Shown: in pieces, positions 141-45,942 of the stretch
Position numbering within the stretch: position 1 is the stretch's first letter
Layout: the number at the start of each line of letters is the position of its first letter
NCBI GenBank assembly: GCA_965200315.1
Contig: OZ241362.1
Span: 992,001-1,056,000 of the forward strand
Length of the DNA: 64,000 bases
Source: Candidatus Latescibacterota bacterium
GTDB taxonomy: Bacteria; Latescibacterota; UBA2968; UBA8231
Reading direction: 5' to 3'
Made by a program: the position numbers and the translations under genes
The notes under the pieces: model-generated
Databases searched by the model: none
Told to the model about the DNA's origin: nothing
Seen by the model: the letters and a program-made list of their open reading frames with translations, nothing else

Positions 141-166
141 ACGGTCGCACAACTTGGAGAAACTCC

Positions 167-3427: not shown

Positions 3428-3454
3428 TAGTGTACACCAGCCAAAGGGAAAATT

Positions 3455-17680: not shown

Positions 17681-18480
17681 GCGCTGCCCCATTTTATCTG
17701 CCGCGCGTCGAATGCCGGCCCATCCACGCAGATGCGGCCGTAGCGGCCGTAGTCCGAGTCGCCTTTTGCCGTCGCCAGCTCGACGGCGCAGCCCACGCAG
17801 ATGCCGATGCCGCAGGCCATGTACTCTTCGAGGGAAACTTGGCACGGGACTTGGGCCTCTGAACATATAGCGGCTACGGCCTGCATCATTCCGTGCGGGC
17901 CACAGCAATAAACCGCGACCGGCTCTTTTTTGGCTAGCTCGTGCTGCAACAGATCGGTGACTAGGCCCGCGTGCCCGAGGCTACCGTCGTCGGTGGCGAG
18001 GTGTACTGCAGCCGCAGCCGGTACCAGCAGTTCACCGGGCAGGTGCTTGTTCGCCGTCCGCGCCCCGACCAACAGCGCAGTCTGGTACTCCCGCTGCTTC
18101 AACTCCAAGCCCCAATACAGCAGCGGCGGTACGCCAATGCCGCCCCCGACCAATGCGACGCGCATACCCTCGGGCGGCGGCACAAATCCCTTACCCAGCG
18201 GGCCGAGGGTCGGCAGAACGGCGTCCGGCCTTACTTGGCTCAGCGCTCGGGTCTTAGGCCCTACTTCTTCGTATAATACCTCGATAATACCGGCCTCGCG
18301 ATTGACGCCGCTCACGCTCAGCGGGACGCGCAACAAGGGATCAACCCCGCCGTCGACCTCGATGTTGACGAACTGACCCGGCTCAATCCGCGCTGCAATG
18401 TAGGGTGCGGTAAGGCGCGCCCAATAGAAGTCCGCGGCGACTGCGCAGTTGCTCAACAGGTGCGCTTGCTCGTCAATCAC
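17668..18480 (-). CDS. pyrK: Dihydroorotate dehydrogenase electron transfer subunit
   Basis: PGQFV, GPLGKGF, GGGIGVPP, CGP, MACGIGICVGC..CVDGP (2Fe-2S). Confidence 0.95.
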   Translation of the reverse strand: MIDEQAHLLSNCAVAADFYWARLTAPYIAARIEPGQFVNIEVDGGVDPLLRVPLSVSGVNREAGIIEVLYEEVGPKTRALSQVRPDAVLPTLGPLGKGFVPPPEGMRVALVGGGIGVPPLLYWGLELKQREYQTALLVGARTANKHLPGELLVPAAAAVHLATDDGSLGHAGLVTDLLQHELAKKEPVAVYCCGPHGMMQAVAAICSEAQVPCQVSLEEYMACGIGICVGCAVELATAKGDSDYGRYGRICVDGPAFDARQIKWGSAWPT

Positions 18481-21119: not shown

Positions 21120-21129
21120 GAGCTGTCTC

Positions 21130-30303: not shown

Positions 30304-30379
30304 GACAAGTCTCCTGAGATGATGGAACCAAGGACGAATTCGGCCAAAAAAGTATCGCTGGAGGCCGAGTAGGGCAAAC

Positions 30380-30958
30380 CTACGCCAAGGGCCGCGCTGT
30401 CTCCCATTGGGACAGCTTATCCAACAGGTGGCGCAGCGCCGCCTCTGGCGTCATCTCGTCCATGTCCAACGTCACGTGGGCTTGGTCAAAGCCGCCTTGG
30501 CGCTCGGCTAACAGCGGCCGGAGTTCCCCCGTACTTTCGGGCGGTTGTAGTAGCAATGGATGTAGCCCTACGGCTTGGTGGCGCAGCTTCCAATAGGTGC
30601 TAGCCAGCGACAATTTGAGGTACACCAACGTCGCTTTGGCCAGTACCTGCCGCAGGTTGGCTTCTTTGAGCAGCGCCCCATCGCCCAAGACGATGATGCC
30701 AGGCGGACGAGTGGTCAGTGCTTGGGCGAGAAAGCGGTCTTCTAATTGGCGCAGGGCCTCTATACCCTGTGTCTGCACGAGGGCAACCAAGGACTGGCCG
30801 GCCTCGTGTTCGATCCAGCGATCCACTTCGATGAGGGGCAAGCCGCTCAAGGCAGCCAAGTCGCGGCCCAAGCCGTGCTGGTCAACGCCTAAGAAGCCGA
30901 TGAGGGCCACCGGACGCTGCAACAGGACCAGCGGTCCATGTTCGTAGTAATTCGACAA
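30380..30958 (-). CDS. Shikimate-kinase-like protein with a degenerate Walker A motif
   Basis: AroK-like pattern (LIGF, DRWIEHEAG, LRQLE, LVYLK, LLAER), but the P-loop reads GFLGVDQH instead of GxxGxGK[ST]. Confidence 0.75.
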   Translation of the reverse strand: MSNYYEHGPLVLLQRPVALIGFLGVDQHGLGRDLAALSGLPLIEVDRWIEHEAGQSLVALVQTQGIEALRQLEDRFLAQALTTRPPGIIVLGDGALLKEANLRQVLAKATLVYLKLSLASTYWKLRHQAVGLHPLLLQPPESTGELRPLLAERQGGFDQAHVTLDMDEMTPEAALRHLLDKLSQWETARPLA

Positions 30959-31078
30959 GGCGTTTACTGATTGTCAGGGCCGCGCCTGATAGCGTAGCTC
31001 TGGACCAAGGCGTCTTGGACAATCGGGGTCGGATCGCTCACGTCCTGTCTCCTGTTAAAAGTCGAGCAGTTCCCGCTA

Positions 31079-31242
31079 TAGCCGTCCTACCTTGATTCAT
31101 GCGATGCGACGCCTGGCGGGGTGCGCGGGCGTCTCGCCTGCAGGCCGGCCTCCCCAAGGACGCCCAGACCACCAAGCACCGGCCGGGCCAAGTTCGATGG
31201 GAGCACAACCCGGCGAGCACCGCAAGTCATGTAGGATGGCTA
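31079..31242. mobile_element. ~164-bp MITE-like element
   Basis: Imperfect TIRs TAGCCGTCCTAC.. / ..GTAGGATGGCTA; TA on the left flank, TG on the right; GC-rich non-coding interior. Confidence 0.6.
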
Positions 31243-31335
31243 TGTCATAAGCACAGTCCAATTAAACCGGGAATCTTTGCTGTATCAAGGCCGGAGCAGA
31301 CGGATGGCGTTGTGGCGGCAATGGTTAGATATAAG

Positions 31336-33987
31336 TCAATACGCCACCCCAACTAGGCGGGCAGCCGAGTTGCCATCCTCGGCGTCGTCATCTACCTCGA
31401 TACGGGCGAGGTAAAGGCCCGGGGACACTAAGGTTCCCTCTTCGTCCCGGCCGTCCCACACAAGGCTATACAGCCCGTTCGCCATGTTGCGCCGCTCAGC
31501 AAGACGCCTCACTTGCCTGCCTGCCAAGTCGTAAAAAGCCACCGTTACTTGCCGGGCCACATTGACTTTGAGCACGGCAAACGAAAAGACAGCCGCGTCG
31601 TTGATGCCGTCGCCATTCGGGGTAAAAGTGGCGGGATCTACCTCGATTGTCCCGATCTGCCCGCGGTGGGCGGTCGTCAAGACTGTCAACCCCTCACCAA
31701 CGGCCAATTCGTCTCCTACCGGGTCCGCTGGGTCCACCCGCTGCCAGTTGTCCGCTTGAGTCGAGCGCCCAACTTCGGCGGCAAAAGTGGCACCGCTCAG
31801 GAAAACGCGTGACGAAAAAGAGACCCGCACAATATCCGCACTGCCGCGCCGCAGTATTCTTGGCAAGCCGATTTGCAGCGTGTCACTTGCCACCTTGGTC
31901 AAGTCCAGTTCCTCCCCCGCCTCATTCTCAAAACGGCCTTTTTCCACCTCGGCAAATATCTCCTCGTTTCCGGCGGCAAATTCGCTTTCGTCTCCCAAAC
32001 TCACTTGGCGCAGTTCGATATTCGCCCGCGAAGGCGCGATGAGCCGGATGCGGTCGAATCCTCGGTCTCGAGCAGCGAAGGAGGAGCCGATGAAGAGGTC
32101 GAAATCTGCGAGTCCGCCGAGGGGGACACCCCGCTTGGGCTCTATTTCCCCAGCGATGTGCTCTACCAGTGGCGCTGTAAAATGGATTTGAATCGACTCT
32201 AGGCTGGCGGCCACTGCCGCGTCTTCACTGAGCAGTCTCGTCTGGATCATCATATAGCGCCGGGGATTGGGGGAGCGTATGACTTCGCCTGGTTTGACGT
32301 AGACTTGACTCCAGTTGCTCCAGCCCGGTCCCGGCAGGAACTCGGTAAGGATCTCCCCCCTGTAGAAAGACGGTTGCTTATCGTATTCTTCTTTGTTGGC
32401 TACTTCCGTGCCGTCTTTTTTGAAATAGCGGTTTATTTCGCGCAGATCGTCCCCCGTGCGGGTGCGGATTTCCACCGCTGTGCCCGAGGGAGTGTCAGCT
32501 TCCCATTCAATGGTCGTCAGTGTCTTGGAACTCCCCAGATCAATGAGGTCGGAAGTCATCTCGAGGATCGGTAAGTGCCCGTTGGCGAAGACTTGGATTT
32601 CGGTCACCGTGCTCAGTATCCGGTGCCCTTCATGAGCCCTAGTGCGGCGGGCAATATCTAGGTTGCGGAATTCCAGAAAGCGTATTGGGCGCGGCTCAAA
32701 GTGATCCTCAAATAGTCGCGTATTCTGGTTTAGCTGCCGCGTCTCACCACTCAATTCCTCCCAGATTAAACTGCCATCGGGTGCCAGCGAGCCGTCCGAA
32801 CCGCGCAATATATAACCAATTAGGTTTCTTCCTCCGACGCGGGTAATGATGCGCACGGCATGGACCAAAAAGTGAGAGCCCAGATTCACGTTCAACAGAC
32901 CCCACTCGGCGGTCTCTCCAGTGGGAAAGTAAACCATGCCCTGCCACTCGGTACGCACGTTGCCGTCAACGGCAAGTTCGGGCGAAGAATTGGGATTGAC
33001 GTCGTGTAAATTACCGCCGCGCTCTACGATTCCCAAGGCGATGTTCTCGCCTATAGTCCATACCTCCACCTCGGCGAGTTGAGGTCGTTCGCGGCGGTAA
33101 TAGCGCACCCCGCCCTGCTGCTCAAGTGGCAACTGATCGTAGCGCTCGGCCGTTACTAGACGCTCTTCGCCGGCGATTTTCCAGACGTATTCCACAGTGC
33201 CTTGGTTTTCTGCTGTCAACGCCTGATACTCCTCGGCAGAGAGCTGTTGCGCCCGCTCGCCACGGGTGGCCGTGACCGCGACGCGCAGGTACTGCACAAT
33301 GCGGCCGGTCCACTCTTCTGTATGGGTGCCCAGTGGTGCGAGGTCGAACTCAAAGACTCGCTGGTCGCGATTGGGCTGGGTAGTGCCGCCAACCAATGTA
33401 TAGTCCAAGGCGCCGCTGCGATCCGCCGTGCCAAAGGGGTTTTGCCCCCCTGCCGCATGTACTCTGAATTGCAGAAACGGGTCCCCTTCTTCGGCAAAGC
33501 GTACAACGACCTTGGTGGCTGACACCAGACGGCCAAGATCAATCTCCAACACCCAGTCCCGCAGGGGATCGGCCGGATCTGGCTCCCAAGCTGTAGTCAG
33601 ATCGGCATCCACGGCCCGCTCCGCTAGCTGCGGATTTGAACCAGCCCTTTTGATCCCGCCGCGCGTCAGCAGCGTGTTATTTTCATCTTGGAACGAATTG
33701 GCGTACTGATCTCGCAAGCTGCCATCAATGGGATAGCTGAAGTCGGCCGCATTCAATATGGCGTTGTGCGGTACTTGTATAAATCTGGACTGCACCGAGC
33801 CAGACGGCGTTATGGCCACCATATCCCGCGGAAAATCCCAAGCCTGCCAATGCGCCTGGGTCCGCACCTCCACCCGATTCTCGCCCAGACTGTAACCCTT
33901 CGATTGGGCCCATACCCCGTTTAGAGCCATAAGAAGAAAAAGGACTACAGAACAGAGTGCCTTGGACAAAAGACCCGATTTCCTCAT
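31336..33987 (-). CDS. Large secreted discoidin-domain protein with a C-terminal FlgD-Ig/CHU_C-like domain; paralog of 167-3427
   Basis: GGAG RBS, MRKS start, signal peptide; DADLTTAWEPD..WVLEIDLGR; RTRTGD..GWSNWS..SPNPRRY; FTPNGDGIND..WDGRD..PGLY..VGVAY. Confidence 0.87.
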   Translation of the reverse strand: MRKSGLLSKALCSVVLFLLMALNGVWAQSKGYSLGENRVEVRTQAHWQAWDFPRDMVAITPSGSVQSRFIQVPHNAILNAADFSYPIDGSLRDQYANSFQDENNTLLTRGGIKRAGSNPQLAERAVDADLTTAWEPDPADPLRDWVLEIDLGRLVSATKVVVRFAEEGDPFLQFRVHAAGGQNPFGTADRSGALDYTLVGGTTQPNRDQRVFEFDLAPLGTHTEEWTGRIVQYLRVAVTATRGERAQQLSAEEYQALTAENQGTVEYVWKIAGEERLVTAERYDQLPLEQQGGVRYYRRERPQLAEVEVWTIGENIALGIVERGGNLHDVNPNSSPELAVDGNVRTEWQGMVYFPTGETAEWGLLNVNLGSHFLVHAVRIITRVGGRNLIGYILRGSDGSLAPDGSLIWEELSGETRQLNQNTRLFEDHFEPRPIRFLEFRNLDIARRTRAHEGHRILSTVTEIQVFANGHLPILEMTSDLIDLGSSKTLTTIEWEADTPSGTAVEIRTRTGDDLREINRYFKKDGTEVANKEEYDKQPSFYRGEILTEFLPGPGWSNWSQVYVKPGEVIRSPNPRRYMMIQTRLLSEDAAVAASLESIQIHFTAPLVEHIAGEIEPKRGVPLGGLADFDLFIGSSFAARDRGFDRIRLIAPSRANIELRQVSLGDESEFAAGNEEIFAEVEKGRFENEAGEELDLTKVASDTLQIGLPRILRRGSADIVRVSFSSRVFLSGATFAAEVGRSTQADNWQRVDPADPVGDELAVGEGLTVLTTAHRGQIGTIEVDPATFTPNGDGINDAAVFSFAVLKVNVARQVTVAFYDLAGRQVRRLAERRNMANGLYSLVWDGRDEEGTLVSPGLYLARIEVDDDAEDGNSAARLVGVAY

Positions 33988-34069
33988 AGTCGTCTCCGAA
34001 ATCATCGAGTACTGCACAGGTAAACGGCGTTCCATAACCTATTGTCCCAAGTAAAGACGTACCTACGTG

Positions 34070-35812
34070 TTACGAACCATCGCCCTTGGTTGGGGCTTCC
34101 GAGGCATGGCGCTGTAGGAACGTATCGGGTAGGGCCGCCGCCAACGCGCTGTCAGATACGGCGATCCGCTCTTTGTACTTGTCCAGCAAATCATTGATCA
34201 ATTCCTCGAAAAGTTGCTCTCGCTTCTGTCCACGCACCAAGGCCCGCGCCCTTTTCGCGACTTGAAAAAAGGGGGATAATTCCCCGCCCTCGCGGTTGAG
34301 AACCTTGAAGATGCTGTATCCGCCTTCAACGTGCACCGGGCCGGTGATTTTGTCGAGGTCGGCCGCCTTTACTGCTTTGAAAAGCCGCGGCAGAGTCAAA
34401 CGCTCGTACTCGCCCAGATGCAGTAAGCCATCTTCTTTCTGCATACCTCGGCGGATGGTGTGCTTTTGGGCGAGCATTCCGAGGGTCGCCCCTCGTGAGA
34501 TGGCGCGCAGCAAACCAACGGCTTCCGCCTCGGTCTCGACCAGCACTTCAACGACAATGTATTGGGCCGGCTCCCTGAACAACTCCTCATTGTTCTCGTA
34601 AAAATCCCTAGCTTCCTCCTCGCTCGCCTCGGATTGGTCCATGACCGCTTCCCGACGTAGCTGTTTAATCATGAATTCCGCGCGTATCTCCTCTAAGCGC
34701 TGTTGTCCATCCGCCATCTCCCCCAACCCCGCCCGCTGCGCCGCCTCTGCCAACAAGGCCGGTATCAGAACCAGTTCCCTCGCTGTATCAACCACTTCGG
34801 CACTGTCCCGCACACCCCAGCCGGATAGGGCCCGTATATCCGTCCGCAGGGCATTGAGATAATCTCCCAGAGCGATCTGCCCTCCCTTATAGATGAAGAG
34901 GGGCTGGCCCACCTCTTCGGCGGCCAGATGAGCGAGTCTCACCTGGGTGTGGAGTGTCGCTTTATGCAGTAGAAGTTCTAATCCCTCTGGCACTAGCTGC
35001 ACATCCAACTTGCGGGTAAGGGCCGCGATTTCCGCCCTCTCCTGCTCTAGACGCTTGCGTTCGTAGAGTATAGCGCGAATCTGCTGTCGTTTCTCTTCTG
35101 GCGGAACGGGCTGATCTTGGAGGAAACGCACGATCTGATAGCGCCTACCCATGGGCAGGATCGGGGATAGCTGTCCGTTCGGCAGACTGCGAAACAGCTC
35201 GTCTGGAATCTGCAGCTTGCGGGCCTGATCCAGATCGATAAATCCCAGCACACCCCCTTGGGAAGCTGACCGTTCGTCTATGGTGTATTCGGCGGCCAAT
35301 TGGGCAAAATCCCCACCCGCTTCAAGCTGCTCATAGATTTGCCGTGCTGTGCTGTCCTCTTCCACCAGAATGCCCGCCATCTGACGCTTGCGGTCTAGAC
35401 CACTGTCGGCGAAATAGGCGCGTACCTCCTCCTCGGAAACCTGCACGTTGGATGCTAATGCAATCCGGCGATAGGTGGCGACCAAATGCTGACGCCAGTA
35501 CTGCATCACTTTAGTCTGGACCACCTCGGCGGTATCCAATCCTCGCTCTTTGGCCTCCAGTACGAGCAGGTACTTGCCCAACAGACTGCGCAGGTAGCGC
35601 TTCCGCACTGGGTCTCCCTGCCCCTGAAGGCGCAAGGACTGGGACATCTGGACGACGAAATCGCGCATCTCGGCAGCCGAGATCGACGTGGAATCAATGC
35701 GCACCACCACACCGGGTTCAAGGACGATCTCCGCACCCGGTGAACACGCCGCGAGACTCCACATGAGTACCAGGGCGCATCCTTGCCAAGTCCATGGTTT
35801 TCTGTTGCTCAT
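34070..35812 (-). CDS. Lipoprotein foldase with two PpiC/parvulin domains (PrsA/SurA-like)
   Basis: Lipobox SLAA|C; GGDFAQLAAEYTID..GGVLGF; second domain GATLGMLAQKHT..GPV..GGYSIFKV. Confidence 0.85.
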   Translation of the reverse strand: MSNRKPWTWQGCALVLMWSLAACSPGAEIVLEPGVVVRIDSTSISAAEMRDFVVQMSQSLRLQGQGDPVRKRYLRSLLGKYLLVLEAKERGLDTAEVVQTKVMQYWRQHLVATYRRIALASNVQVSEEEVRAYFADSGLDRKRQMAGILVEEDSTARQIYEQLEAGGDFAQLAAEYTIDERSASQGGVLGFIDLDQARKLQIPDELFRSLPNGQLSPILPMGRRYQIVRFLQDQPVPPEEKRQQIRAILYERKRLEQERAEIAALTRKLDVQLVPEGLELLLHKATLHTQVRLAHLAAEEVGQPLFIYKGGQIALGDYLNALRTDIRALSGWGVRDSAEVVDTARELVLIPALLAEAAQRAGLGEMADGQQRLEEIRAEFMIKQLRREAVMDQSEASEEEARDFYENNEELFREPAQYIVVEVLVETEAEAVGLLRAISRGATLGMLAQKHTIRRGMQKEDGLLHLGEYERLTLPRLFKAVKAADLDKITGPVHVEGGYSIFKVLNREGGELSPFFQVAKRARALVRGQKREQLFEELINDLLDKYKERIAVSDSALAAALPDTFLQRHASEAPTKGDGS

Positions 35813-35821
35813 GTCTTCTAT

Positions 35822-37672
35822 TCAGTACACTAGGGAGATAGACCCCAGTCGCTCCTCCCGACCACTGCCCGCTTCTACCACGACGCGGTAAATGTATAGT
35901 CCTGGGGCTACCAATTCGCCTTGGTCATCCCGCCCGTCCCAAGCAGTCTGATAAAGCGCGCTCCCCCCCTCTCCAGCACCCAAGGTGCGCACTTGGTTTC
36001 CCGCCAGCGTGTAGATTTCCGTCTCAAGAGGCACGACATCGGTCAGACGCAGTAATGTATAGGCGAACTGCACTTGGTCGTTGACGCCATCTCCATTGGG
36101 TGAGAACGGGTTGGGAACCACTTGCACGGCACTGAGCAGACCGCCCTTGAGCGGCGTGCGGACGTTCAAGGCGTCGCTCAACAACTCGTTCATAGCATCC
36201 CCGGGCATCACACTCTGGGGTACTTCGTCGCTGTCCGCATCCGACACTGCGCCGTTGAAGATCGTTCCATAGTTGAAAACTCGGGCATTGAAATCCACTT
36301 CTAGCAGCGTCTGGTCTTGGTCAATGCGATCAAATTGGATGGCGAACTGGTGGGGCTTTGCCGGATCGAAGCTGGGGGTAAAATCGACTGCTTCGCGGTC
36401 GATGCGCACCTCGTGGATGGCCTCCAGACGGGCGGAAGTGCTTACCTCGAAAACATTGAAACCCGATTGCTCCGTCTCCAGCCGGATTCGCACCGCATAG
36501 GTGAACCGAACCGGATCGGCCGACTCTACAAAAGGAGGGTAGATTTCGCCAATCGCCGCGGAGACTATAGGTGGTTGGGAAAATTCAAAAAACAGCGAGT
36601 CGATCTGCCCTCCAGCCAATCTGGCGGAGGAAAAAGCGATGTGTAATTGCACATACTGCCGGGGGCTGGGAGAGCGAATCTGGATGCCGGCGAGTCCGTC
36701 CGCATACTCATAGGTGTGCCATACGCTCCAGTTTTCCAGATCCTGGGTAATGCCCCCGCGCACATTCTGGGGCATGGCTCCATACTCTTGGCGGCTCATG
36801 GGCCGGCCATTGGCTCCGAATGGCACTTGCTCTCCCCCGACGCCGGTCTTGCGCCAATAGACCTCCGGCTGGTCATCGCTGCCGCTGCGGCTCTGAATGA
36901 CTATTTTCGCTTCTGGATCGAGTTGGCCGTTCCACCAGATGCGTCCCAAACTGGATGTTCGTCCCAAGTTGATCGGGTCGGACAGAAAGGAGGCCTGGGG
37001 AACAAACCCCTGACCGTACACCTCAAACTCAGCCACTTCCCACGTCTCCCCCACTTCCAAGGGATGGAGATAGACATGGCGTGCTATCCGGGGTTCGATA
37101 GCCAATTCGACTACTGGGCTTAAGTTGTCCTGCTCTTCGTGAATCAAGGTCCAGATGAGATTTCCTTTTTCGTTTTTGCTCTCTTCCCTGCCGTCGTTGA
37201 TAGAAAGCCTAAACTGGCGGATCTTGTGCCCCGGATGATCGGCGCGGGGTGCAAAGCGAACCTCTTCAATGGGGAATGGTGCCCCCAGATCGAAGAACAG
37301 CGGCGTAGTATAGAAAAACCCAGGACCGCGAAAGAAATTGATGCGCGGCGGATGTACAAAAGCCGTATTCGAATCGCCATCTACTAGCAACACGCGCTCT
37401 TCTAGCCAATTGGCCGGCAGGGTGTAAATGCTCACCAAGCTGGTAATATCGCCATTTCGCTCGCCCATCGAGGCAATCAGGTTCTCGCCGCTTTCGGCGC
37501 TGAACGGGCGGATGGCACCCGGCACTTTTGCCACATCGATAAAACTCAGGGTGCCGCTTTCACTCCAAGAGTTTCCAGCATGGCCCCCCAGTTGGTAAAA
37601 TTGGCGCGCCTCAGCCCGATAGCCCGCTCCCATCCCCAACGCGGTCAGGACTATAATCAGCACCTGTCTCAT
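35822..37672 (-). CDS. Secreted discoidin-like protein with a C-terminal FlgD-Ig/CHU_C-like domain
   Basis: AGGAGG RBS before MRQV; signal peptide; DGDSNTAF..FDLG; QSRSGSDDQP..SPSPRQY; PNPFSPNGDGVND..WDGRD..PGLY..SLVY. Confidence 0.87.
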   Translation of the reverse strand: MRQVLIIVLTALGMGAGYRAEARQFYQLGGHAGNSWSESGTLSFIDVAKVPGAIRPFSAESGENLIASMGERNGDITSLVSIYTLPANWLEERVLLVDGDSNTAFVHPPRINFFRGPGFFYTTPLFFDLGAPFPIEEVRFAPRADHPGHKIRQFRLSINDGREESKNEKGNLIWTLIHEEQDNLSPVVELAIEPRIARHVYLHPLEVGETWEVAEFEVYGQGFVPQASFLSDPINLGRTSSLGRIWWNGQLDPEAKIVIQSRSGSDDQPEVYWRKTGVGGEQVPFGANGRPMSRQEYGAMPQNVRGGITQDLENWSVWHTYEYADGLAGIQIRSPSPRQYVQLHIAFSSARLAGGQIDSLFFEFSQPPIVSAAIGEIYPPFVESADPVRFTYAVRIRLETEQSGFNVFEVSTSARLEAIHEVRIDREAVDFTPSFDPAKPHQFAIQFDRIDQDQTLLEVDFNARVFNYGTIFNGAVSDADSDEVPQSVMPGDAMNELLSDALNVRTPLKGGLLSAVQVVPNPFSPNGDGVNDQVQFAYTLLRLTDVVPLETEIYTLAGNQVRTLGAGEGGSALYQTAWDGRDDQGELVAPGLYIYRVVVEAGSGREERLGSISLVY

Positions 37673-37709
37673 CCAGTGCCTCCTTTGCTCGGTCGCCAAC
37701 TAAGAGAAC

Positions 37710-37741
37710 GGCGGGATTTACAGTCGCCCGTAAATCCCGCC
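37710..37741. terminator. Perfect 12-bp intra-operon hairpin (terminator or mRNA stabiliser)
   Basis: GGCGGGATTTAC-8nt-GTAAATCCCGCC between the 290-aa gene and the next gene; no strong U-tract on the coding strand. Confidence 0.6.
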
Positions 37742-37790
37742 TGAAACTATCCTCCAACTTCTACGGCACAGGCAGTCGAGTCGGCCTTAT

Positions 37791-38663
37791 TCAGAAGGAG
37801 GACTTGATCTGACCCCAAGTGCTGGCCTCGACTCCGGTCGCGCTGGCCTCGGGCAACCCCTCTTCGATGGGTGCCAACAGATAGTCGCCAAATTGATCGG
37901 CATCCCTAGAAGCACCTACGCCACCAAAACCAGACCAATAGGCATCGTCGTAGGAGCCAGGATCGGCATCCTTGTCTCCCCAGTTGACCTCTATACCGAC
38001 CACTGTGCCTTCGACCCAAGCGTGTTGCACACTCTGGTCGGCGCCGTCGGGATGGATGTCGTCAAAGGGCACAATGGTGTACTCGCCGAACATTTCGGCT
38101 GGCTCTTGGGTATTGACGTCGCCGCGGAGAAACTTGCCGGCCCACTCCACGTAAGGGGGCTGGCCAGCCCAGGCTTTGGAGCCATCGATAATCCGGGTAT
38201 AATAACCGGAAGAGCTGAAAATTGGGCCGGCCAAATCGTAGCGTTGGGCGTGGGAACTGGCCCAGCGGGTCTCGAAATCATCCCCTTGGTCGAAGCCGCG
38301 AAAGATGCCGCCGGAGTGATCCCAATCTGTAGTCGTCGACCATTTCTCGGTATCGTTGATGAAGTCGTCGGCAACCCAAGCTGCAAAATAGGCCTTGCCG
38401 TCGTTGATGTTGTAACCCCAAATGAGCGAGGCATTGAAGTCGCTCAGATCCATGGGTGCGCCGAACTGGTTGAACATGGTTTCGGCTTTGATCTTGTACA
38501 CATCGGAGACAATGTCCCAGTCCGACATATCGCCATCCAGTACTGGCGTCAGGTGATCCGGGAACTGGAACATGAACTTCATCTCCCCTTGGTGGCTAAA
38601 AGCCGTGCCGACCATGAGGGCCGAGACCAGTAAAGCAATTGCTGCCTCATTGATTCTCTTCAT
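37791..38663 (-). CDS. Secreted acidic protein, CBM9/DOMON-like, with C-terminal TGVEASTWGQIKSSF tail
   Basis: Signal peptide (AFS|H); PVLDGDMSDW..YFAAWVADD..DKDAD pattern typical of CBM9-like folds; xVExxxWGxIK tail. Confidence 0.75.
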   Translation of the reverse strand: MKRINEAAIALLVSALMVGTAFSHQGEMKFMFQFPDHLTPVLDGDMSDWDIVSDVYKIKAETMFNQFGAPMDLSDFNASLIWGYNINDGKAYFAAWVADDFINDTEKWSTTTDWDHSGGIFRGFDQGDDFETRWASSHAQRYDLAGPIFSSSGYYTRIIDGSKAWAGQPPYVEWAGKFLRGDVNTQEPAEMFGEYTIVPFDDIHPDGADQSVQHAWVEGTVVGIEVNWGDKDADPGSYDDAYWSGFGGVGASRDADQFGDYLLAPIEEGLPEASATGVEASTWGQIKSSF

Positions 38664-38782
38664 TGCAATACCTCTTTTCAGTTAGTAAGTGGATCTTTGT
38701 GTCTTTTGCTGCCCCAAACGGGGCTGAAACGACGACTGTTTCTCTCTCCTCCTTTCAGCTACCAACAGATCGCCATGTTATA

Positions 38783-39152
38783 TAACTGACGTTACGCAGT
38801 CAGAGCCCCCCGCACCCTCCTGCCGACGCGGCAGGGCGGAACCGAAGCCGAAGTCTGCGACGTAGGGCTTGGTCCGGGGTTCGTCCGCGCCCTGTGTCTT
38901 GTCGGCCCGCCGCGAGCCGACCGAGCCCGCACTCCACAGACTTGCGGTGTGCCACAGCCTTTCTTAACGGACATTCCGCCGGCCTGGCGCAAAAGCGTTC
39001 TCAAAACCTCGTCGGGCAGCTTGGCGGGGCGGTCGAGTCGTCATAGGCATCCGGCGTTTTTCGCGGGCAAGCCCGAAATCGTCGTTTTAGGAACGCTGCT
39101 TAGGAAGGCGGGCTCCCCTAACCAAAACCCGCCGACCGCGGAACATCAGTTA
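38783..39152. mobile_element. 370-bp MITE-like element with TIRs and a TATA target duplication
   Basis: Left end TAACTGACGTTACGCAGTCAG versus reverse complement of the right end TAACTGATGTTCCGCGGTCGG (17/21); TATA at 38779-38782 and 39153-39156; no credible ORF; several internal stems. Confidence 0.75.
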
Positions 39153-39199
39153 TATAACTGTAATATCAACCTAATTCAACGTTGTGAAGGTCAAACCCA

Positions 39200-41869
39200 C
39201 TAGCGTTCCAGCCCTGCATAGGCCGTCATGAATATCTTGCTAGTCGTGCTAGGGGGCAGATTTTCAAACGTCAGCTTCTGTAGGCGAAATCCCGTCTGTA
39301 GATGGAGTCTGTAGCCCAAGTAATCCGAGGAGTTATTAAATTGCACCGCAACGATGCGACTGAAGGAATCCGGCTCCAAGTCGCGATGGACCGGCACCCC
39401 CTCCTCGTCGTCGCGAAACTGCTTAAAGTGGGACACTTCTAGGCCCAACTCAATGAGCGTATGGGAGAGTAGGGGAATGCGGGCAATTAGAAAAAGCGTC
39501 TCGGTCAACTCGCGGCGCTGCGGGTCGCGCTTGTGCACGGGGAGCTCGCGCAAAAATTCGCTTTTGAAGCGCGGTTCAAGTTCGATGTTTCGCACTGGGA
39601 AAGTGTAATCGACTTTGTTGATGAGACCGATAAAGCTGGCCGTACCGCGCAAGTCGCGCTGAGCCCGGCGCTGGTTGTAGATTTCAGTTTTGAACTTGTT
39701 GATTACGTTCAGGTTCCCTATGAGCATGAAGTCGAACTGTACATAGGAAGTGTTGACCCAGGTGTCGCGGGCCGGGAGCAAATCGAAAACGCGCTGTTGA
39801 GTACCACGGGAATTAGACGGCTGCACCCACTGGAAGAGGTTGTTGGGAATGTCGTCCTCGACCAGCTTGAAGTTGTCGAACACCCGCAAACGGCCCAACT
39901 GGGCAAAATCCCTTTCGTAGGTGAAGAGCAGGTACATGGATTCGTTTTTGCGATCTCCCGCCAGCAGTTTTTCGCGCAAACGCCCGACGGTCAGCCGGGC
40001 CTCGGGCCCAATGTGGGTTCCCACGTAGATATTGTAGCCGCGGTGGTCGCGCCCGTAGGGATAATCGGGGTCTTCGTCGTTCTCAAAGCGGTCTATCCAG
40101 CCGTTGTTGTTCATGTCAACGCCGAAGAGGTATTCGGGTCTATCGGCGTGATAGCGCAGGAAGGGCTCTTCGTAATCGGGAATGAAGTTCTGGCGATCCT
40201 CCGTATCGTTCTGGTTGAAGTCCGAGACGAAATCGTTGTTCTCGTCAAAACCCGGAAAGACCGCATTGTCCGACAGCATACTATAGCGGCTCCAGTCCGG
40301 CCGGCGGTCTTGGTCATCGTTGTCCTCGACGAACTCGTAGATATAGGATATTTCGTCTTCGTAATCGATTTCGTCCTGTCCCCGAGTACCCGCGAGGAAG
40401 GTGCGGGTAGAATAGTCCGCGTCCATGCTATAGCCTTCGAGGAAGACGAACCAAGGATAGGACGCCTTGGACAGGTTGAACATCCATGCCTGGGCGTCGT
40501 TCACCGCCTTGCGATGATCCTTTAGGTTGAGGTTGGGATACTGGCGGTACTGATTATTGAAATCGTACTCCCCGTAAAAGTCAAAACCCCAGACCTTGTT
40601 GGCCTCGAAGGTAACGCCAAGGATGGTATTGGCCGTGGGCAGACCGTAGTCGAATTGCAACAGTCGCTGGTTGGAGTTGTCGCGGATATTGTGCTGGGCC
40701 CGCTCGACCAGCAAGAAGACGGGCTGTGAGTCCCGGTTGGTCTGCCGGTCGGACGTGATTTCCACCTTGTAGTCGTTGGAGATCACCAATTCAAAAGATA
40801 CTCTTTCAATAGTCGTAGGATCGGGCCCGGTGTACAAAGGGTCCGTAAAGTCGTAGGTGAGGGTAATGCGCTCGTCCCCGTCGGCAGCTAAAAACCCTAC
40901 CCGTTGGAACCCCCCTTCGCGTATGGGCTCGAATCCTATGGCACTGCCGCGGAAAACATGGCCGTCCACATCCTCGATGACGATTTCGTCGTCGAACAGG
41001 GCCGCGCCCCCCACTCCGTCGGCGGGCGAGTCGTCCGACAGCCGGATAATGATGCGGGAGATGGGCAGCGCATTCTGGTCGGTGGTTAGAGCCCCGCCCG
41101 CGAAAGGATTGCCGGTGAAATCGTCGAATAGGGTCTGACCTTGGAAGGCGGTCACATAGGTCGCTCCGACCTGGACGAAGTCGCCGACCTGAACGATGCC
41201 CCGCCCTCCCACTAAGTTGGTGACACTGGTCTTCTGATCGGGGATATCCAGAGAAGTGGCCACGGCCGGCCGACTGGGGCGGGCCAGTAGGAGAGTACCT
41301 TGGTACTTGTCGGCAGCAAAGTCCCACTGAATACCGTTGAATGTGGGTTTAGAAAAGGTCATCGGTGTCAAAGTAGTGCGGAGCTCATCGCCAATCGTGA
41401 TGCTGTAGTAGTATTGTCCCTTGTGGTCCGCGGAGACAGCTACTCGGTTGAACCACTGGTTGAACCGGTTGGTCTTGAGGATGCTGCTGCCGAATTGCCG
41501 GGGGCGATCTTGCTGCCAATCGTAGATCAACCAGCCTCGGGTGACCAGATTGCCGAAGAAATCGTAGAAGAAATCGCCCTCCAACGCGGTGTCCACATAG
41601 CGCTGATAGGGCTCGCGGGCGTAGTTGGAGTACTCCCATTGTCTCCACCGGTACTCCTTATACAGTTCTTGAGGGACGTACCATTTGCGTACTGCCGGAT
41701 CCAGCGCGTCGAATAATACCCCCGGTCCTTGCGGGGAAAAATCCACCTTTCCGTCCTGTTTTACTCTACCGAGGCGCGAGTCGGACGCTTGGGCACCAAC
41801 CGGAGTCGGCGCACTCCAGCCTAGCACGCAGAGAACAGCACCTACCACAATCAGATAGTGCTTGTGCAA
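39200..41869 (-). CDS. Conserved exported/outer-membrane protein of unknown family (889 aa); paralog of 3455-6115
   Basis: GGAGG RBS plus TTG; signal peptide; colinear with the paralog (LRTTLTPM.FSKP, DDSPADG.GGAA, YGLPTA, VEDNDDQDR.PD, DMNNN.W.DRFEND, YAGL). Confidence 0.82.
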   Translation of the reverse strand: MHKHYLIVVGAVLCVLGWSAPTPVGAQASDSRLGRVKQDGKVDFSPQGPGVLFDALDPAVRKWYVPQELYKEYRWRQWEYSNYAREPYQRYVDTALEGDFFYDFFGNLVTRGWLIYDWQQDRPRQFGSSILKTNRFNQWFNRVAVSADHKGQYYYSITIGDELRTTLTPMTFSKPTFNGIQWDFAADKYQGTLLLARPSRPAVATSLDIPDQKTSVTNLVGGRGIVQVGDFVQVGATYVTAFQGQTLFDDFTGNPFAGGALTTDQNALPISRIIIRLSDDSPADGVGGAALFDDEIVIEDVDGHVFRGSAIGFEPIREGGFQRVGFLAADGDERITLTYDFTDPLYTGPDPTTIERVSFELVISNDYKVEITSDRQTNRDSQPVFLLVERAQHNIRDNSNQRLLQFDYGLPTANTILGVTFEANKVWGFDFYGEYDFNNQYRQYPNLNLKDHRKAVNDAQAWMFNLSKASYPWFVFLEGYSMDADYSTRTFLAGTRGQDEIDYEDEISYIYEFVEDNDDQDRRPDWSRYSMLSDNAVFPGFDENNDFVSDFNQNDTEDRQNFIPDYEEPFLRYHADRPEYLFGVDMNNNGWIDRFENDEDPDYPYGRDHRGYNIYVGTHIGPEARLTVGRLREKLLAGDRKNESMYLLFTYERDFAQLGRLRVFDNFKLVEDDIPNNLFQWVQPSNSRGTQQRVFDLLPARDTWVNTSYVQFDFMLIGNLNVINKFKTEIYNQRRAQRDLRGTASFIGLINKVDYTFPVRNIELEPRFKSEFLRELPVHKRDPQRRELTETLFLIARIPLLSHTLIELGLEVSHFKQFRDDEEGVPVHRDLEPDSFSRIVAVQFNNSSDYLGYRLHLQTGFRLQKLTFENLPPSTTSKIFMTAYAGLER

Positions 41870-41895
41870 AATCCCCCTCCTCGCTTGGCTAGCAT

Positions 41896-43914
41896 CTAGT
41901 ATACCACGGACACACTGTTGAACCGCCGCTCGGTCTCCCGATCAGAGCGGATTTCCACTACCGCTAGGTAGATGCCCGGCGGCACAGGGCGAGCGTCGTC
42001 GCCGCGACCGTCCCACTGTAGCTGGATGCGACCGTTTTGGACTTCGGCAGCGTCGAGCCGCCGCACGCGGCTACCAGCCAAGTCGTAGATATTTACCTCG
42101 CCCGGCGCTGGTTCGAGCAGGTGCAGAACCGCATAGCTTATTTCCGCCACGTCATTGGCCCCATCTCCATTGGGGGTGAAGGTCCGCGGCTGGATTGCCA
42201 GCGGACCAGCCACTTGCGAGCCTACGGGAATCCTCACCAGCAACTCGTCGGTATCCTGTTCGGCTGAAGCATCCCCACCCTCGGTCTGTAGCGGCACTTG
42301 TACGCTGGCATCGGCAAAGGCCCGCCCTTGGAAACGCGTACCATAGCGGAACACGGCCGCATCAAAGACAATTTTCAAAAGGGCACCATCGGTGTTGATC
42401 AGGGGTACGCCTAAGGCAAAGTGGTCGTTCTCCACCGCCTCAATGGAGAACGATCCGACGCGCCAAGGCAAAGATACACTGGCTAGATCGCCGCTGAACT
42501 CGGCTCCATCTAGGCGATTGCCCACTCTGTCTTGGATTTCTACCGAATGGAGGGCCGCGATGCGGGCTGGGGTTTCGATCTCAAAGCGCGTGAACCCCGG
42601 CCGGCCCGTAGTATTGGCAATGCGGGCAAAGTACGTAAAAGTCGTCTGTTTGCCAACTTCGGTCCGCGGCGGTCCCACCTCGGCGACGATGCGGTCGACC
42701 GGGGGCCGTGCGAACTGGAAGCCCAAGTCGGCGACAGCGCGGCTAGCATCTAGGCTCAGATTGGTGAAGTCAATGCGGAATTGGAAATAACGCCGTGGCG
42801 CCGGCACCGTCAGCGGGGTCCCATTGTCGACCACTTGCCACTGGACCCAGCCGTTGTCGGTATCGGGCTTGATGGGCCCCTGCTGGTTTTTCGCCAGTTT
42901 TTTGAAGGTTTCTGCTGTCAGCGTATTGCCTTCGCTATCGGTGGACACATATTCGGGTTGCCGCCCTCCTACATTGGCATTGCGGAAAAAGACATTGGGC
43001 GTCGTATCCCGTCCGCTGCGGACGCGGACTTCTATTTTGGAATCCGCGCTATTGCCCGCCGCCACTTCGCTCCAAGCGATTCGCCCCCAGACTACCTCCT
43101 CGCCCAACTCTAGCACATTGGACACATAGCTGGCCGTCGGGACGAATCCCCTGCCGTACACTTCTATCTCGTCAATTTCAAATCCGAGCGTGGAAATCGA
43201 CTTGAGTTGTAAAAAGCGGACAAATTGGGGGTTGAGCTGTGCATCCACCCTCGCCTCGCGGTTGTCTGGATCGCGCCGCACCGGCGAGGTAAAAATGGGC
43301 TGCCCACTGGCAAAGAGGTTTTGCGACAAGCCATCGTTGAGGAACAACTCATATCCCCGCATGAATTCGTTCTCAAAGGGAAACGACGCCGTCATCCTCG
43401 GATAGAACACGATTCGGTCCACTCCAAAGCGTGCGCCGAGGTCGATGCGAATGGTGACGCCGTTGTTGCGCACGATGCGACCGGCCACGAATTTGCGATC
43501 AAAAGCCACTCGGTGGTCGCCATTGAGCATGCCCTCCAATTGCTCTGGATTCTTCTGGCTAGCATCCAGCCCCGGAATATCTATAGTGCCCCCCCGCTCG
43601 AGAACACCGAGCGAAATGTTGAAATCAGAGCGCAAGCGCAGCGGCATGATCCAGTTTTGCAGGGAATCCAAGCCAATGGCGAATACTTTTGCGCCATTGG
43701 CGTCCTCGATAGTTCCCAATTGCTCGACAAAATCGATCACGCCCCCGGGGGTTGTGCCAGAATTGCGCCAAGGATGTTCGTTGCCGCCGACCATAAAAAC
43801 ATCCTGTGCGCTAGTTGGGCACACGGACAGCAGCAGAAGGAAGAGTGGCAAAGGAGGGACTATCTGTAACGATTGCAGAAGCTGGACGCGGGAACCGATA
43901 GGACGATGTGCCAT
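41896..43914 (-). CDS. Secreted discoidin-like protein with a C-terminal FlgD-Ig/CHU_C-like domain; paralog of 35822-37672
   Basis: AAGGAG RBS; signal peptide; IDLGARFGVDRIVFYPR; EVYGRGFVP; RSGRDTTP; FTPNGDGAND..WDGRG..PPGIY..SVVY. Confidence 0.87.
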   Translation of the reverse strand: MAHRPIGSRVQLLQSLQIVPPLPLFLLLLSVCPTSAQDVFMVGGNEHPWRNSGTTPGGVIDFVEQLGTIEDANGAKVFAIGLDSLQNWIMPLRLRSDFNISLGVLERGGTIDIPGLDASQKNPEQLEGMLNGDHRVAFDRKFVAGRIVRNNGVTIRIDLGARFGVDRIVFYPRMTASFPFENEFMRGYELFLNDGLSQNLFASGQPIFTSPVRRDPDNREARVDAQLNPQFVRFLQLKSISTLGFEIDEIEVYGRGFVPTASYVSNVLELGEEVVWGRIAWSEVAAGNSADSKIEVRVRSGRDTTPNVFFRNANVGGRQPEYVSTDSEGNTLTAETFKKLAKNQQGPIKPDTDNGWVQWQVVDNGTPLTVPAPRRYFQFRIDFTNLSLDASRAVADLGFQFARPPVDRIVAEVGPPRTEVGKQTTFTYFARIANTTGRPGFTRFEIETPARIAALHSVEIQDRVGNRLDGAEFSGDLASVSLPWRVGSFSIEAVENDHFALGVPLINTDGALLKIVFDAAVFRYGTRFQGRAFADASVQVPLQTEGGDASAEQDTDELLVRIPVGSQVAGPLAIQPRTFTPNGDGANDVAEISYAVLHLLEPAPGEVNIYDLAGSRVRRLDAAEVQNGRIQLQWDGRGDDARPVPPGIYLAVVEIRSDRETERRFNSVSVVY

Positions 43915-44031
43915 GGTGAGAATCGGCTCCTTAGTAGATAGCTGAGATTCCAGCCTTGCTCACTTCTCGATAGCGCACCGGAGGCTACAACCTCTTTGAA
44001 GCGTGACATTCGTTACAGGTCGTGGTAGGCT

Positions 44032-44060
44032 ATAATATAGTGTAAAATAAGATAAATCAA
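44032..44060 (-). promoter_or_regulatory. Sigma70-type promoter for the 43914-31336 cluster
   Basis: Minus strand TTGATT-17 nt-TATTAT in an AT-rich patch about 120 nt upstream of the first ATG. Confidence 0.6.
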
Positions 44061-44168
44061 GAAAGCCTAAAGCCTAGCTTTAATCCGCATGCACATCGTG
44101 ATTGTTCATCCGCCCCGTACTCTTGAATAAGGCCCCACACGCTCTTTCCAATAGAAAAGAACGCATCC

Positions 44169-44483
44169 ATGCGGACCATCGGCCCCGATCCCTACTTCGC
44201 CTACAAGGCCGATTTCTTCCGCGATCTCTTTCCGGCCGGGATCGAGGGGTTTTTCACGTCTTGGGGCACCGAACACTGCATCCAACGGCTGCTGTGGTCA
44301 GCAGGCTCACCGGTACTGGGGCAGGAATACTTGCTCAACACGCGGTATTTCAGTGGTTCGGGCTGCTGTACGGAACGGTTGGGGATCAGCACACCGGGCC
44401 GGAAATCGAAGCGCTGATGGTTGAAGCGGGCTTCAGCGAGACGGAGTGCCGCCCCCTCGACTGCGAGCAGGGGATCGCGGTTA
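44169..44483 (+). pseudogene. Decayed SAM-dependent O-methyltransferase fragment
   Basis: One frame gives ADFFRDLFPAG..FFTSWG, another gives LLYGTVGDQHTGPEIEALMVEAGFSETECRPL. Both resemble Methyltransf_2 C-terminal motifs; frameshifted, with no N-terminus. Confidence 0.5.
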
Positions 44484-44801
44484 GCGGTCCGTCCTGCCGC
44501 GACGTTCCTGCTGCGGCACCAACCAGACCAAGGTCGCCCCCCAGCCGCCGCCACCGTCGCCAGCCAAGCGGAATGCCTCCACCTCGGGCAAACGGGCCAG
44601 AATGGCGTGGACCGAGCGCCGCAACTGGCCCGTGCCCTTGCCGTGGATGACGCGCACCTGCAAAATGCCAGCTTGGCGACAGGCATCCAAATAGTCGGGC
44701 AACAGCTCTTTGAGGTCGCGCGGATGGAAGGTGTGTAAGTCCAGCGTACCGTCGATGGGCACTTCCACCGCTTCAGGCTCTTCCCATTCTTCTGCGGTCA
44801 T
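44481..44801 (-). CDS. Stand-alone Smr/MutS2 C-terminal domain protein
   Basis: LDLHTF, VRVIHGKGTGQLR, GGWGATLV. Confidence 0.92.
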   Translation of the reverse strand: MTAEEWEEPEAVEVPIDGTLDLHTFHPRDLKELLPDYLDACRQAGILQVRVIHGKGTGQLRRSVHAILARLPEVEAFRLAGDGGGGWGATLVWLVPQQERRGRTDR

Positions 44802-44805
44802 CGTC

Positions 44806-45942
44806 CTAAGCCTTGCGAGCGCGGAGTTCCGTAGAACTAATATCCATTCTAAAGGGAACCGACTCGAAAAGGTCTGCGTACTGTGCGGGTACATCTATAT
44901 CGACTAAGGTGCAATACGCATCTCCATCCACCCGACCAGCCACCCAAAAGCGACAGCCCCCAGCGGCAAATTCCTCCAAGGCCGCGGCCAAGCCCTGCTC
45001 CCCTTCATCGTAATAGTGGCCCTGCAAAAGCCGCACCGCCGTATCGTACCCCAGCGCGAAATGGCAACCGCCAAAGAGCCGAGCCTTCTGCAAAAAGGTT
45101 GGCGACCGCGTCATCACCACAGGGAAACGACCGCGCATCTGCGCCAAACGCCGCTCGACCTCGCTCCTGTGCAGGGGTGGCTTATCGACATTTTCAACGG
45201 ACATTTCCAAGCTCGGCTGGCGACCGCTTAGCTGTCCCGCCGCGGCCGCGAGCCGCTCGTGCCCTGCGTGCAGCGGATTGAAAGAACCGCACAAGAGCAG
45301 ACGCTGCCCGCGCTCGGCCTCCGGGTAGATCGCCCCATCAGTACGCATTTCGACGACGTCCAACTCGCCCGCAAACAGCAAACCCAGCGGATCGTCCAAC
45401 GACAGCTCGCGCCGCGCAAGATGCGCGTAATTAGGCAACGATTCACCAGCGACCGGGCCGCCGCAGGCCTCCCCTATGGCCTCCAAGGCCAAGCGGCTCA
45501 AGGCCTCCTCTTGCGCCAAGCGGTCGGCAGCGCCCTTTGCAAAACGCAGGGTGTACAAGCGATAGGCGTGCTCCAAGCGCAGCGCGATACAGCCCCGGTC
45601 CGCACCGCGCCGCGGCCTGCTCGTCGCCAAGGCCGCACTACAACCCACGCCGATGCAGCCCGGTCCCGGGTCGGCAAAGGCCGCGGCCCGCACAAAGGCC
45701 CGCCCCGCCATATCCCGCGCTGTTTGCTCGTTGGCCCCATGCGGCCCCGCCGCGGCCAAATACGCCGCTAGCGCCCGCTCGCTATAGGGCACTTGGGCTT
45801 CGACGATGGCGCGCGAGGCCCCGGGGTGATTCAAGAGCCAGCTAATGAGTTGGCTGCCCCCGCCAGTGGTCGCCAAGGCCAGCCGGAGGCCGCTGTGCAA
45901 TACGGCTTCGACCTGCGCCCAGATGTCGCTGGAGACGCGCAA
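44806..45942 (-). CDS. CinA/PncC-like domain fused to a NadD-like nucleotidyltransferase
   Basis: N-terminal TGGG..PGASR..VPYS..A..MA; C-terminal GSFNPLHAGH (HxGH), GYDT and DISSTELR. Confidence 0.8.
   Translation of the reverse strand: MRVSSDIWAQVEAVLHSGLRLALATTGGGSQLISWLLNHPGASRAIVEAQVPYSERALAAYLAAAGPHGANEQTARDMAGRAFVRAAAFADPGPGCIGVGCSAALATSRPRRGADRGCIALRLEHAYRLYTLRFAKGAADRLAQEEALSRLALEAIGEACGGPVAGESLPNYAHLARRELSLDDPLGLLFAGELDVVEMRTDGAIYPEAERGQRLLLCGSFNPLHAGHERLAAAAGQLSGRQPSLEMSVENVDKPPLHRSEVERRLAQMRGRFPVVMTRSPTFLQKARLFGGCHFALGYDTAVRLLQGHYYDEGEQGLAAALEEFAAGGCRFWVAGRVDGDAYCTLVDIDVPAQYADLFESVPFRMDISSTELRARKA

Follow-up and report, generated by a model that had tools for sequence, protein, structure and literature searches.

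SusC/SusD utilisomes occur as many paralogous loci, each joining a large barrel to non-catalytic surface binders and served by ExbB/ExbD in trans; TonB-dependent receptors are 22-stranded barrels with an N-terminal plug that belong to PF00593, and the usher FimD carries a β-sandwich inserted in its barrel. For the Bacteroidota type IX secretion system (T9SS), published work describes type-B cargo genes that adjoin the gene of their shuttle and shared shuttles for orphan cargo (PMC12618676), PorP/SprF shuttles that are 14-stranded FadL-like barrels of ~33 kDa (PMC9143113), and type-B C-terminal domains (CTDs) that stay uncleaved (PMC12618676, PMC9143113). Here we analyse a six-gene cassette at positions 31336–43914 of a 64,000-nucleotide stretch of DNA (the window) from a Candidatus Latescibacterota bacterium, whose genome (G000) is a single 5.36-Mb contig, 94.7% complete and 7.8% contaminated. 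The cassette encodes a predicted outer-membrane barrel (U), three surface proteins (K), a two-parvulin lipoprotein (P) and a CBM9-like secreted protein (T). The first-pass annotation had taken it for a candidate undescribed secretion or surface-assembly locus, and the results bear out an undescribed, conserved and modular envelope system: U belongs to no characterised family, and the gene types co-occur at 28 loci of the genome and across the phylum. A literature search, with subscription papers and preprint supplements outside its coverage, found no paper on a U–K system. The export step of the proposed U–K machine would be a variant of known T9SS cargo handling.

A recurring six-gene cassette

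A check of the open reading frames (ORFs) of the window shows that positions 31336–43914 are filled exactly by six genes, co-oriented as claimed and all on the minus strand, which are transcribed in the order K672-U889-T290-K625-P580-K899 with intergenic distances of 26, 536, 91, 9 and 34 nt. Their N termini look by eye like the signal peptides ascribed to them, and P580 (34070–35812) carries the lipobox LAAC together with the two rotamase domains expected of a two-parvulin, SurA/PrsA-like chaperone.

When the 19,304 genome ORFs with a length of 80 aa or more were searched with profiles, these returned 43 U ORFs (38 longer than 800 aa, U889 included) at 28 loci, with 37 full-length U889 paralogues elsewhere in the genome, 110 matches to the K core (104 longer than 400 aa, of which 101 end in Tyr) and 33 matches each for P and T. 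K is present at 27 of the 28 U loci, and P and T at 23 each. Of the K, P and T genes, 83/101, 27/30 and 28/32 are found no more than 15 kb from a U gene, compared with 3/31 ordinary type-A CTD proteins; zones of this width around U genes make up 18% of the genome. The order A-U-T-B-P-L, where A, B and L denote K subtypes, is conserved down to 66–68% U identity, and A-U-T-B-L is found at two of the 11 loci examined in a distant family. Three U loci are split or truncated (G000:680193-681583, 379 + 122 aa; 2085640-2088272, 608 + 258 aa; 2903155-2903865, 236 aa) and represent either decaying copies or assembly errors. The recurrence noted at 1–6115 of the window proved to be the end of a second cassette that begins upstream of it (T-KB-KA-P-KL-U, G000 985146–998115); the window holds the 3′ end of its P paralogue, which stops at position 140, K1096 (137–3427, plus strand), placed in subtype L by the K profile and tree, and the paralogous barrel U886 (3455–6115, plus strand), with 48% identity to U889 over 897 columns.

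The phylum was surveyed in 153 genomes at least 80% complete, all from Latescibacterota, with 5–16 candidates scored per genome, such that a negative means that the given query found nothing. Neither U nor K has a described function, and both are matched in one and the same set of 93 among these 153 genomes of an uncultured phylum, with identical tallies per family; the genomes being related, this concordance amounts to ~4 absent against 10 present families rather than 153 independent trials, which lessens its weight. Relatives labelled Gemmatimonadota or Planctomycetota may reflect database naming of the same lineage. In G000, the U, K, P and T families and ~36 type-A CTD proteins together take up ~538 kb of the 5.36 Mb.

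U889 (39200–41869), which the first-pass annotation could not assign, indeed matches no Pfam or NCBIfam family above noise. It shows no match to PF11751, TIGR03519 or NF033709 at E 0.1, and five of its paralogues show none to Pfam at E 1e-4. Its AlphaFold2 model, built from 114 sequences (pLDDT 89.3, pTM 0.88), has 23 long strands, with tight turns alternating with long loops, plus short N-terminal strands, and most of the long strands show alternating hydrophobicity. On this model U889 is almost certainly an outer-membrane barrel, of about 24 strands when counted from the model's secondary structure rather than its coordinates. A β-sandwich recognised in the model's secondary structure (mature residues 220–375, 40667–41134) and an acidic loop (mature residues 457–582, 40046–40423) are inserted on the long-loop side, which lengths of turns and loops and topology would make extracellular. 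The loop, with its EF-hand-like motif DMNNNGWIDRFE, is the best-conserved part of the U family (in 97 full-length sequences, conservation reaches 80% or more at 38 of its 126 columns; 37% D/E/N), and it probably binds calcium.

Results of a Foldseek search show that only large-barrel structures resemble U889, with the best query TM-score (0.29) for MtrB, followed by SlpA, FimD and LptD. MtrB (6r2q), SlpA (7zgx, 8ae1), FimD/PapC and LptD share the size class of the U barrel, but query TM-scores of at most 0.29, identities of at most 11% and the absence of any meaningful match in a PDB sequence-profile search set U apart from them. VIA-align likewise returned generic barrels (Z ≤14), and the fold matches as a whole are generic barrel matches with rmsd values of 5–15. 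A structure-atlas search with the inserted sandwich gave no usable named match. An atlas lead to DUF6029 (score 0.88, 151 shared features) was rejected, because the sole DUF6029 match of the genome is another ORF, of 523 aa. U also differs from TonB-dependent receptors in lacking a Pfam match and a recognisable plug and in having its presumed extracellular inserts; none of the 13 PF00593 matches of the genome falls on a U gene. Among 1.84 billion representative sequences, 771 U relatives were found at E 1e-3; the named ones among the matches listed are all hypothetical proteins, and the closest orthologues (89–96% identical) belong mostly to Candidatus Latescibacterota.

K proteins, type IX secretion and the shuttle Q

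The three K proteins are paralogues, as had been claimed, with F[TS]PNGDG[IVA]ND, WDGR, PGxY and a final Tyr in all of them; the proposed core motif is present too, with small deviations in K625 (EFEVYGQGF, QSRSG). K672 (41896–43914) is of subtype A, with a CBM32/discoidin-type core and its CTD at ~41899–42219; K625 (35822–37699) is of subtype B; and K899 (31336–34035) is assigned by motifs and tree to the long subtype L. The AlphaFold2 model of K625 (pLDDT 94.2) shows a CBM32 fold (~37010–37495), a second, scaffold sandwich, an Ig domain and the CTD (~35825–36145). Its first domain superposes on 4a42 (Z 15.8, rmsd 2.0, 123 residues aligned) and is of CBM32/discoidin fold, from which carbohydrate binding is predicted; residues 487–593 superpose on the PorU CTD 6za2 (Z 12.5, rmsd 2.6, 99 aligned). 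The fold search barely covered the scaffold and Ig domains. K proteins contain no catalytic domain.

A tree of 101 K proteins resolves the long L type, the short types A/A2 and B/B2 and small groups D and E. Exactly three K genes are present at 16 U loci, and each of the 16 has one L, one A and one B, compared with a mean of 5.4 loci and a maximum of 14 in 100,000 shuffles; the tree that defined the subtypes also underlies the count, and cassette duplication inflates the constancy. The 12 other U loci have fewer K, more K or core-type K. Since the composition is constant while the gene order shuffles (15 different orders among the 16 cassettes), the triad points to three non-interchangeable roles for L, A and B. 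Among nine paralogous cassettes, K distances mirror U distances (r 0.52–0.91), K cores following U (0.74/0.88/0.91) better than K CTDs do (0.52/0.55/0.83), although short CTDs are noisier. Fast divergence of the CBM32 domain, considered as a sign of ligand diversification, was weak in paralogues (0.24 vs 0.27–0.36) and undetected in eight orthologues. We lean towards the view that the K trio works on U, for which a platform seating the K proteins would be a plausible role.

Of the canonical T9SS parts, the genome has SprA (621 bits, cut-off 200), PorU (615, cut-off 420) and PorV-family (237, cut-off 90) genes; seven PorV-family matches exceed the cut-off, and there are 56 type-A CTD matches. 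SprA is matched in 153/153 genomes of the phylum. Of the porK, porM and porN counterparts sought alongside, GldK is found only below cut-off, and GldM and GldN are unmatched with weak controls. SprA lies at L105:10008-16397 and PorU-PorV at L107:8475-13339, with no GldM or GldN detected genome-wide, a pattern that suggests a T9SS with a different motor or none across the phylum. Also in the window, between carB and pyrK, is an 895-aa TPR lipoprotein (18477–21164, minus strand) that is PorW/SprE-like (E 1.7e-34; 119.6 bits, cut-off 250) and ends in a TonB_C domain; in a genome without recognisable GldM/N, it is a candidate for connecting SprA to a motor of Ton type.

The K CTDs are type-B-like, but the first-pass annotation went too far in treating them as established type-B domains. 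Two score 17.6 and 20.1 bits against TIGR04131 (cut-off 35), K625 is unlisted at E 0.1, and the CHU_C cut-off is passed by K625 and K672 (32.8 bits for the latter, which also exceeds the FlgD_ig cut-off with 39.1 bits) and not by K899. They differ from type A in having PNGDGxND rather than PNPFN and a terminal Tyr rather than Lys/Arg. The cleavage-type linker T[ASV][VI] precedes the CTD in 8/100 K proteins as against 16/37 type-A proteins, and these sequences suggest that the K CTD is probably retained, not cleaved. It is in all likelihood as T9SS cargo that the K proteins leave the cell.

At one of the core loci described below (G000 1355–1374 kb), the gene right after a D-type K encodes a 286-aa protein, Q. 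Q is homologous to the PorV family over its full length (hhalign 98.2%, 260 columns; PDB PorV 6h3i_F, E 2.3e-6), and 17 of 18 Q orthologues match NF033709 at E 1e-3. At 20 loci around Q matches, selected for taxonomic spread, the order K-Q-U is seen at 15, in four families, with a TPR gene next at 12; the other five have no K before Q, which precedes a TPR gene at four of them, with ExbB, ExbD and DUF4159 at three. Q is present in 11/11 genomes of a distant family (E 1e-21 to 1e-29), and U-negative genomes yield only weak matches (1e-12 or worse), in 14/60. Elsewhere, at G000:3147670-3149559, a 666-codon frame right after a CTD-bearing gene contains two tandem PorV-family barrel domains.

Set beside the type-B cargo and PorP/SprF pairs SprB-SprF and PG1035-PorP-PorE, as described in PMC9143113 and PMC12618676, K and Q share the PNGDGxND CTD, its probable retention, a genome that encodes SprA, and a cargo gene directly followed by that of a small PorV-clan barrel. 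They differ in CTDs with a terminal Tyr and scores under the TIGR04131 cut-off, in a cassette barrel of 890 aa and ~24 strands instead of 14, in a ratio by which one or two Q would serve ~100 K, and in the lack of any GldM or GldN found.

Core operons and the proposed mechanism

The core operons run K-Q-U-(U)-TPR-ExbB-ExbD. Three core loci hold between them eight divergent U genes, which group in a clade of their own, and each of these loci has a 1080–1098-aa TPR gene with a hydrophobic N terminus. Two of the loci encode one ExbB and two ExbD, which by gene content is an AglR/Q/S-type motor; the third encodes a fusion of a lipoprotein with an AgmX/TonB-C domain (the AgmX/PglI C-terminal model is exceeded over its cut-off, GltG matched weakly). 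At a fourth locus, which lacks U, a Q paralogue is accompanied by TPR and ExbB. The family of the lipoprotein numbers 14, of which 13 lie within 10 kb of U loci, with none in the 31336–43914 cassette. TPR matches occur in 83 genomes, all among the 93 with U, and in 0/60 others. Eighteen U-positive genomes have weaker K matches only (E 1e-33 to 1e-79), as would fit core-type K alone, so that the core looks more widespread than its satellites. The cassette at 31336–43914 probably depends on this ExbB/ExbD/TPR core, and it is most economical to assume that one common core, with Q as shuttle and ExbBD-TPR as motor, serves many satellite cassettes, each made up of a U pore, a trio of CBM32-type binders, an accessory CBM9-like binder and a chaperone.

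The Agl-Glt/Agl-Nfs core (aglR, Q, S; gltC, D, E, G; PMC3169522) resembles these operons in having one ExbB and two ExbD, a TPR protein of great length and, near outer-membrane barrels, a TonB-C domain of AgmX/GltG-like type. The operons described here depart from it in that Glt equivalogs are unmatched (three TPR proteins show no match to Glt models at E 1e-14), the barrels are far larger and unrelated in every test applied, and the surface proteins carry T9SS CTDs.

We tentatively propose that the six genes are a satellite cassette that lends specificity to a proton-powered trans-envelope machine for capture and import, in which T9SS-exported K trios would sit on U pores powered in trans by ExbBD-TPR. 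The six proteins would leave the cytoplasm by Sec, as their signals indicate, and the P lipoprotein would act as chaperone for the set. U would insert in the outer membrane with its sandwich and acidic loop facing outward. The three K proteins would cross the single SprA translocon of the genome by means of their CTDs, would probably be collected by Q, a PorV-clan barrel common to all of them and found in the core operons only, and would probably keep the CTD after export. Gene content suggests that one K each of L, A and B could form a binding lid on or beside U, with T as an abundant accessory binder. ExbB-ExbD-ExbD and the 1090-aa TPR protein, whose genes adjoin the divergent U genes of the core, would power the pores in trans, and captured glycans or other polymers would be imported.

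Energised import as the net function is likewise a tentative choice. It appears the likeliest one from the analogy with utilisomes and from the excess of U genes (~38) over TonB-dependent receptor matches (13) in the genome. Like SusC/SusD systems, the cassettes are paralogous and combine a large barrel with carbohydrate-binding-type surface proteins; unlike SusD, the K proteins are CTD-tagged CBM32 proteins in a fixed trio and are not lipoproteins, and neither SusD nor glycan-degrading enzymes occur in the six genes or among 16 of the 216 flanking proteins that were scanned. A further-reaching and more doubtful version would make this a second class of energised outer-membrane transporter in Latescibacterota, in which ~24-strand barrels are capped by an obligate heterotrimer of T9SS-exported lectins and an ExbB-ExbD motor acts through a TPR rod that spans the periplasm, in place of TonB. 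A few core operons would then supply motor and shuttle to dozens of swappable cassettes making up some 10% of the genome, which would also hold a type IX system without a recognisable Gld motor.

Several results weigh against capture and import. Ligand, binding and transport are all read from genes and models, and the CBM32 fold also occurs in non-lectin domains (DOC, IFT25). Residues 1–69 of U889 are mostly of low confidence, with no plug of TonB-receptor type in the model, and the motor operons contain no TonB gene, the sole AgmX/TonB-C-like fusion being that of the third core locus. GldK is represented by sulfatase-modifying-like matches alone, and GldM and GldN go unmatched in a genome that is 94.7% complete, in searches whose positive controls were also silent. 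Q falls under all NCBIfam cut-offs for named subfamilies (86.6 vs 90 for NF033709, 31.7 vs 90.55 for TIGR03519) and shows linkage to no K subtype but that of the core, its service to ~100 satellite K being an assumption. Whole-cassette duplication by itself could account for part of the triad constancy and of the mirrored distances. No glycoside hydrolase was found in the 16 flanking proteins scanned, and the TPR and FG-GAP/ASPIC neighbours are unlike those of polysaccharide-utilisation loci (PUL). Finally, DUF6785 was rejected as core inner-membrane partner on the grounds of its phyletic mismatch with U, as it is present in 142/153 genomes and missing in 11/11 of one U-positive family.

The first-pass annotation had offered U itself as cognate translocator, shuttle or anchor of the K CTDs; U would then be an oversized PorP/SprF analogue or an usher-like pore exporting the K trio folded by P. 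The near-constant company of K at U loci (27/28), their common phyletic pattern and the mirrored distances in nine cassettes (r 0.52–0.91) would suit such a role, as would the FimD/PapC ushers among the top Foldseek matches and the absence of a PF11751 match from the genome, in a search that had no positive control. A shuttle, however, predicts a CTD signature shared within each cassette and none was found, identity being 0.359 within and 0.358 between cassettes (p 0.38); no cassette-specific CTD address is seen, and this equality argues against U as the cognate shuttle. The closer agreement of U with K cores than with K CTDs, the single U gene per three K, an usher TM-score of only ~0.2 and the lack of a PorP or PorV model match tell against it as well, as does the barrel itself, with ~24 strands where PorP/SprF has 14 and ~33 kDa (PMC9143113). 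A complex prediction of U889 with the K672 CTD scored 0.00 (mark 0.32) with its controls unfolded, and speaks neither for nor against binding. The PorV-clan barrel Q, directly after K in the core operon, is the better candidate: it is fairly likely that Q rather than U reads the CTD, and U is probably not a CTD shuttle; a shuttle, anchor or translocator role for U is unlikely.

About as improbable is a motor-linked coat or adhesion apparatus akin to Agl-Glt/Nfs, in which U platforms would display adhesin trios for attachment or surface movement and nothing would be imported. The ExbB, paired ExbD, 1080–1098-aa TPR and AgmX/GltG-like TonB-C components do recall the Agl-Glt core (PMC3169522), the K proteins are non-catalytic, SlpA, an S-layer-associated barrel, ranks high for U, and TPR, FG-GAP/ASPIC and at least one GT-C/TPR protein stand beside cassettes; but the TPR proteins match no Glt model, and a ~24-strand pore present 38 times with matched K sets exceeds the needs of an anchor. 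The module is also present in relatives named from a deep lake and from groundwater, which argues against a host-specific adhesin. Least probable by far is that U exports, as an energised pore, some polymer or modified molecule of the surface that K and T would guide or bind outside. Motor-linked barrels can move polymers in Agl-Nfs (PMC3858216), LptD, PgaA and PelB-type export barrels are among the fold matches of U, and the GT-C/TPR gene overlaps the end of U886; those fold matches are generic (rmsd 5–15), though, and neither the window cassette nor the 16 neighbours scanned contain polymer-synthesis genes. Should capture and import hold, the cassettes would constitute a new route of polymer uptake that is invisible to PUL and TonB annotation and may reveal what Latescibacterota consume. 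Whatever the function, a T9SS without recognisable GldM/N is here linked both to a new family of barrels and to a motor of ExbBD-TPR type.

Transcripts, accessory genes and neighbours

The cassette is covered by contigs of RNA libraries from four studies, some of which span adjoining genes (for example X1 40302–43919 and 37858–40066); they also cover flanking genes, and DNA carry-over is possible. The bin of the T gene is highest or second-highest in depth in four runs, and cover drops to 0–2.7 immediately upstream of K672, but neither was counted as evidence, since contig depth cannot rank genes and DNA may have been carried over. The contigs of relatives skip ~370–390 nt of the 536-nt spacer between U and T (38664–39199), and in one case 18 nt, which marks its middle as a variable insert. 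There is no Rfam match in window positions 30000–45000, and a promoter scan of the locus found no excess above shuffled sequence.

T290 (37791–38663) matches no Pfam or NCBIfam family on its own, but a profile of 24 paralogues matches the CBM9 structure 1i82 (E 2e-6), in agreement with the CBM9-like character claimed for it, and 5/24 family members match CBM9_1. It ends in a TGVE-xxTWGQIK tail. A WGxIK tail terminates 41 genome proteins longer than 150 aa, many of them unrelated to the T family, and is preceded in 33/41 by a T[ASV][VI] linker like that before 16/37 type-A CTDs; on the strength of this resemblance the tail may be a short sorting tag, and T[ASV][VI]E-xx[ST]WGxIK is possibly a third sorting signal genome-wide. 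It is distinct from the short CTDs of 40–55 aa reported for Prevotella in PMC11969387. Right 3′ of T290 lies a 14-bp GC-rich hairpin (37710–37741, minus strand), a terminator or RNA stabiliser; hairpins of −25 kcal/mol or lower follow 21/32 T genes vs 19/173 K, U and P genes.

Among the 216 ORFs flanking cassettes, a cluster of TPR and FG-GAP/ASPIC proteins is the commonest (50/216). A GT-C (PMT_2) and TPR protein at 6096–8342 (plus strand), overlapping the end of U886, may glycosylate cassette proteins. DUF6785 is enriched near cassettes (20/37 within 10 kb, p 7e-7). The genome encodes 37 DUF6785/DUF6784 membrane-protein paralogues (for example L110:11418-13319), an expansion shared by most of the phylum of which we found no mention in the accessible literature; PDB profile searches with the DUF6785 proteins and with a small lipoprotein, S, returned nothing meaningful. 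The remainder of the window includes a Fic-domain protein following the second cassette (8361–9362, minus strand), an MFS transporter-HEAT fusion (10325–12619, plus strand), a PhyH dioxygenase-HEAT fusion (28822–30303, minus strand) and a GmrSD-type restriction endonuclease adjoining dnaK (60698–62404, minus strand).

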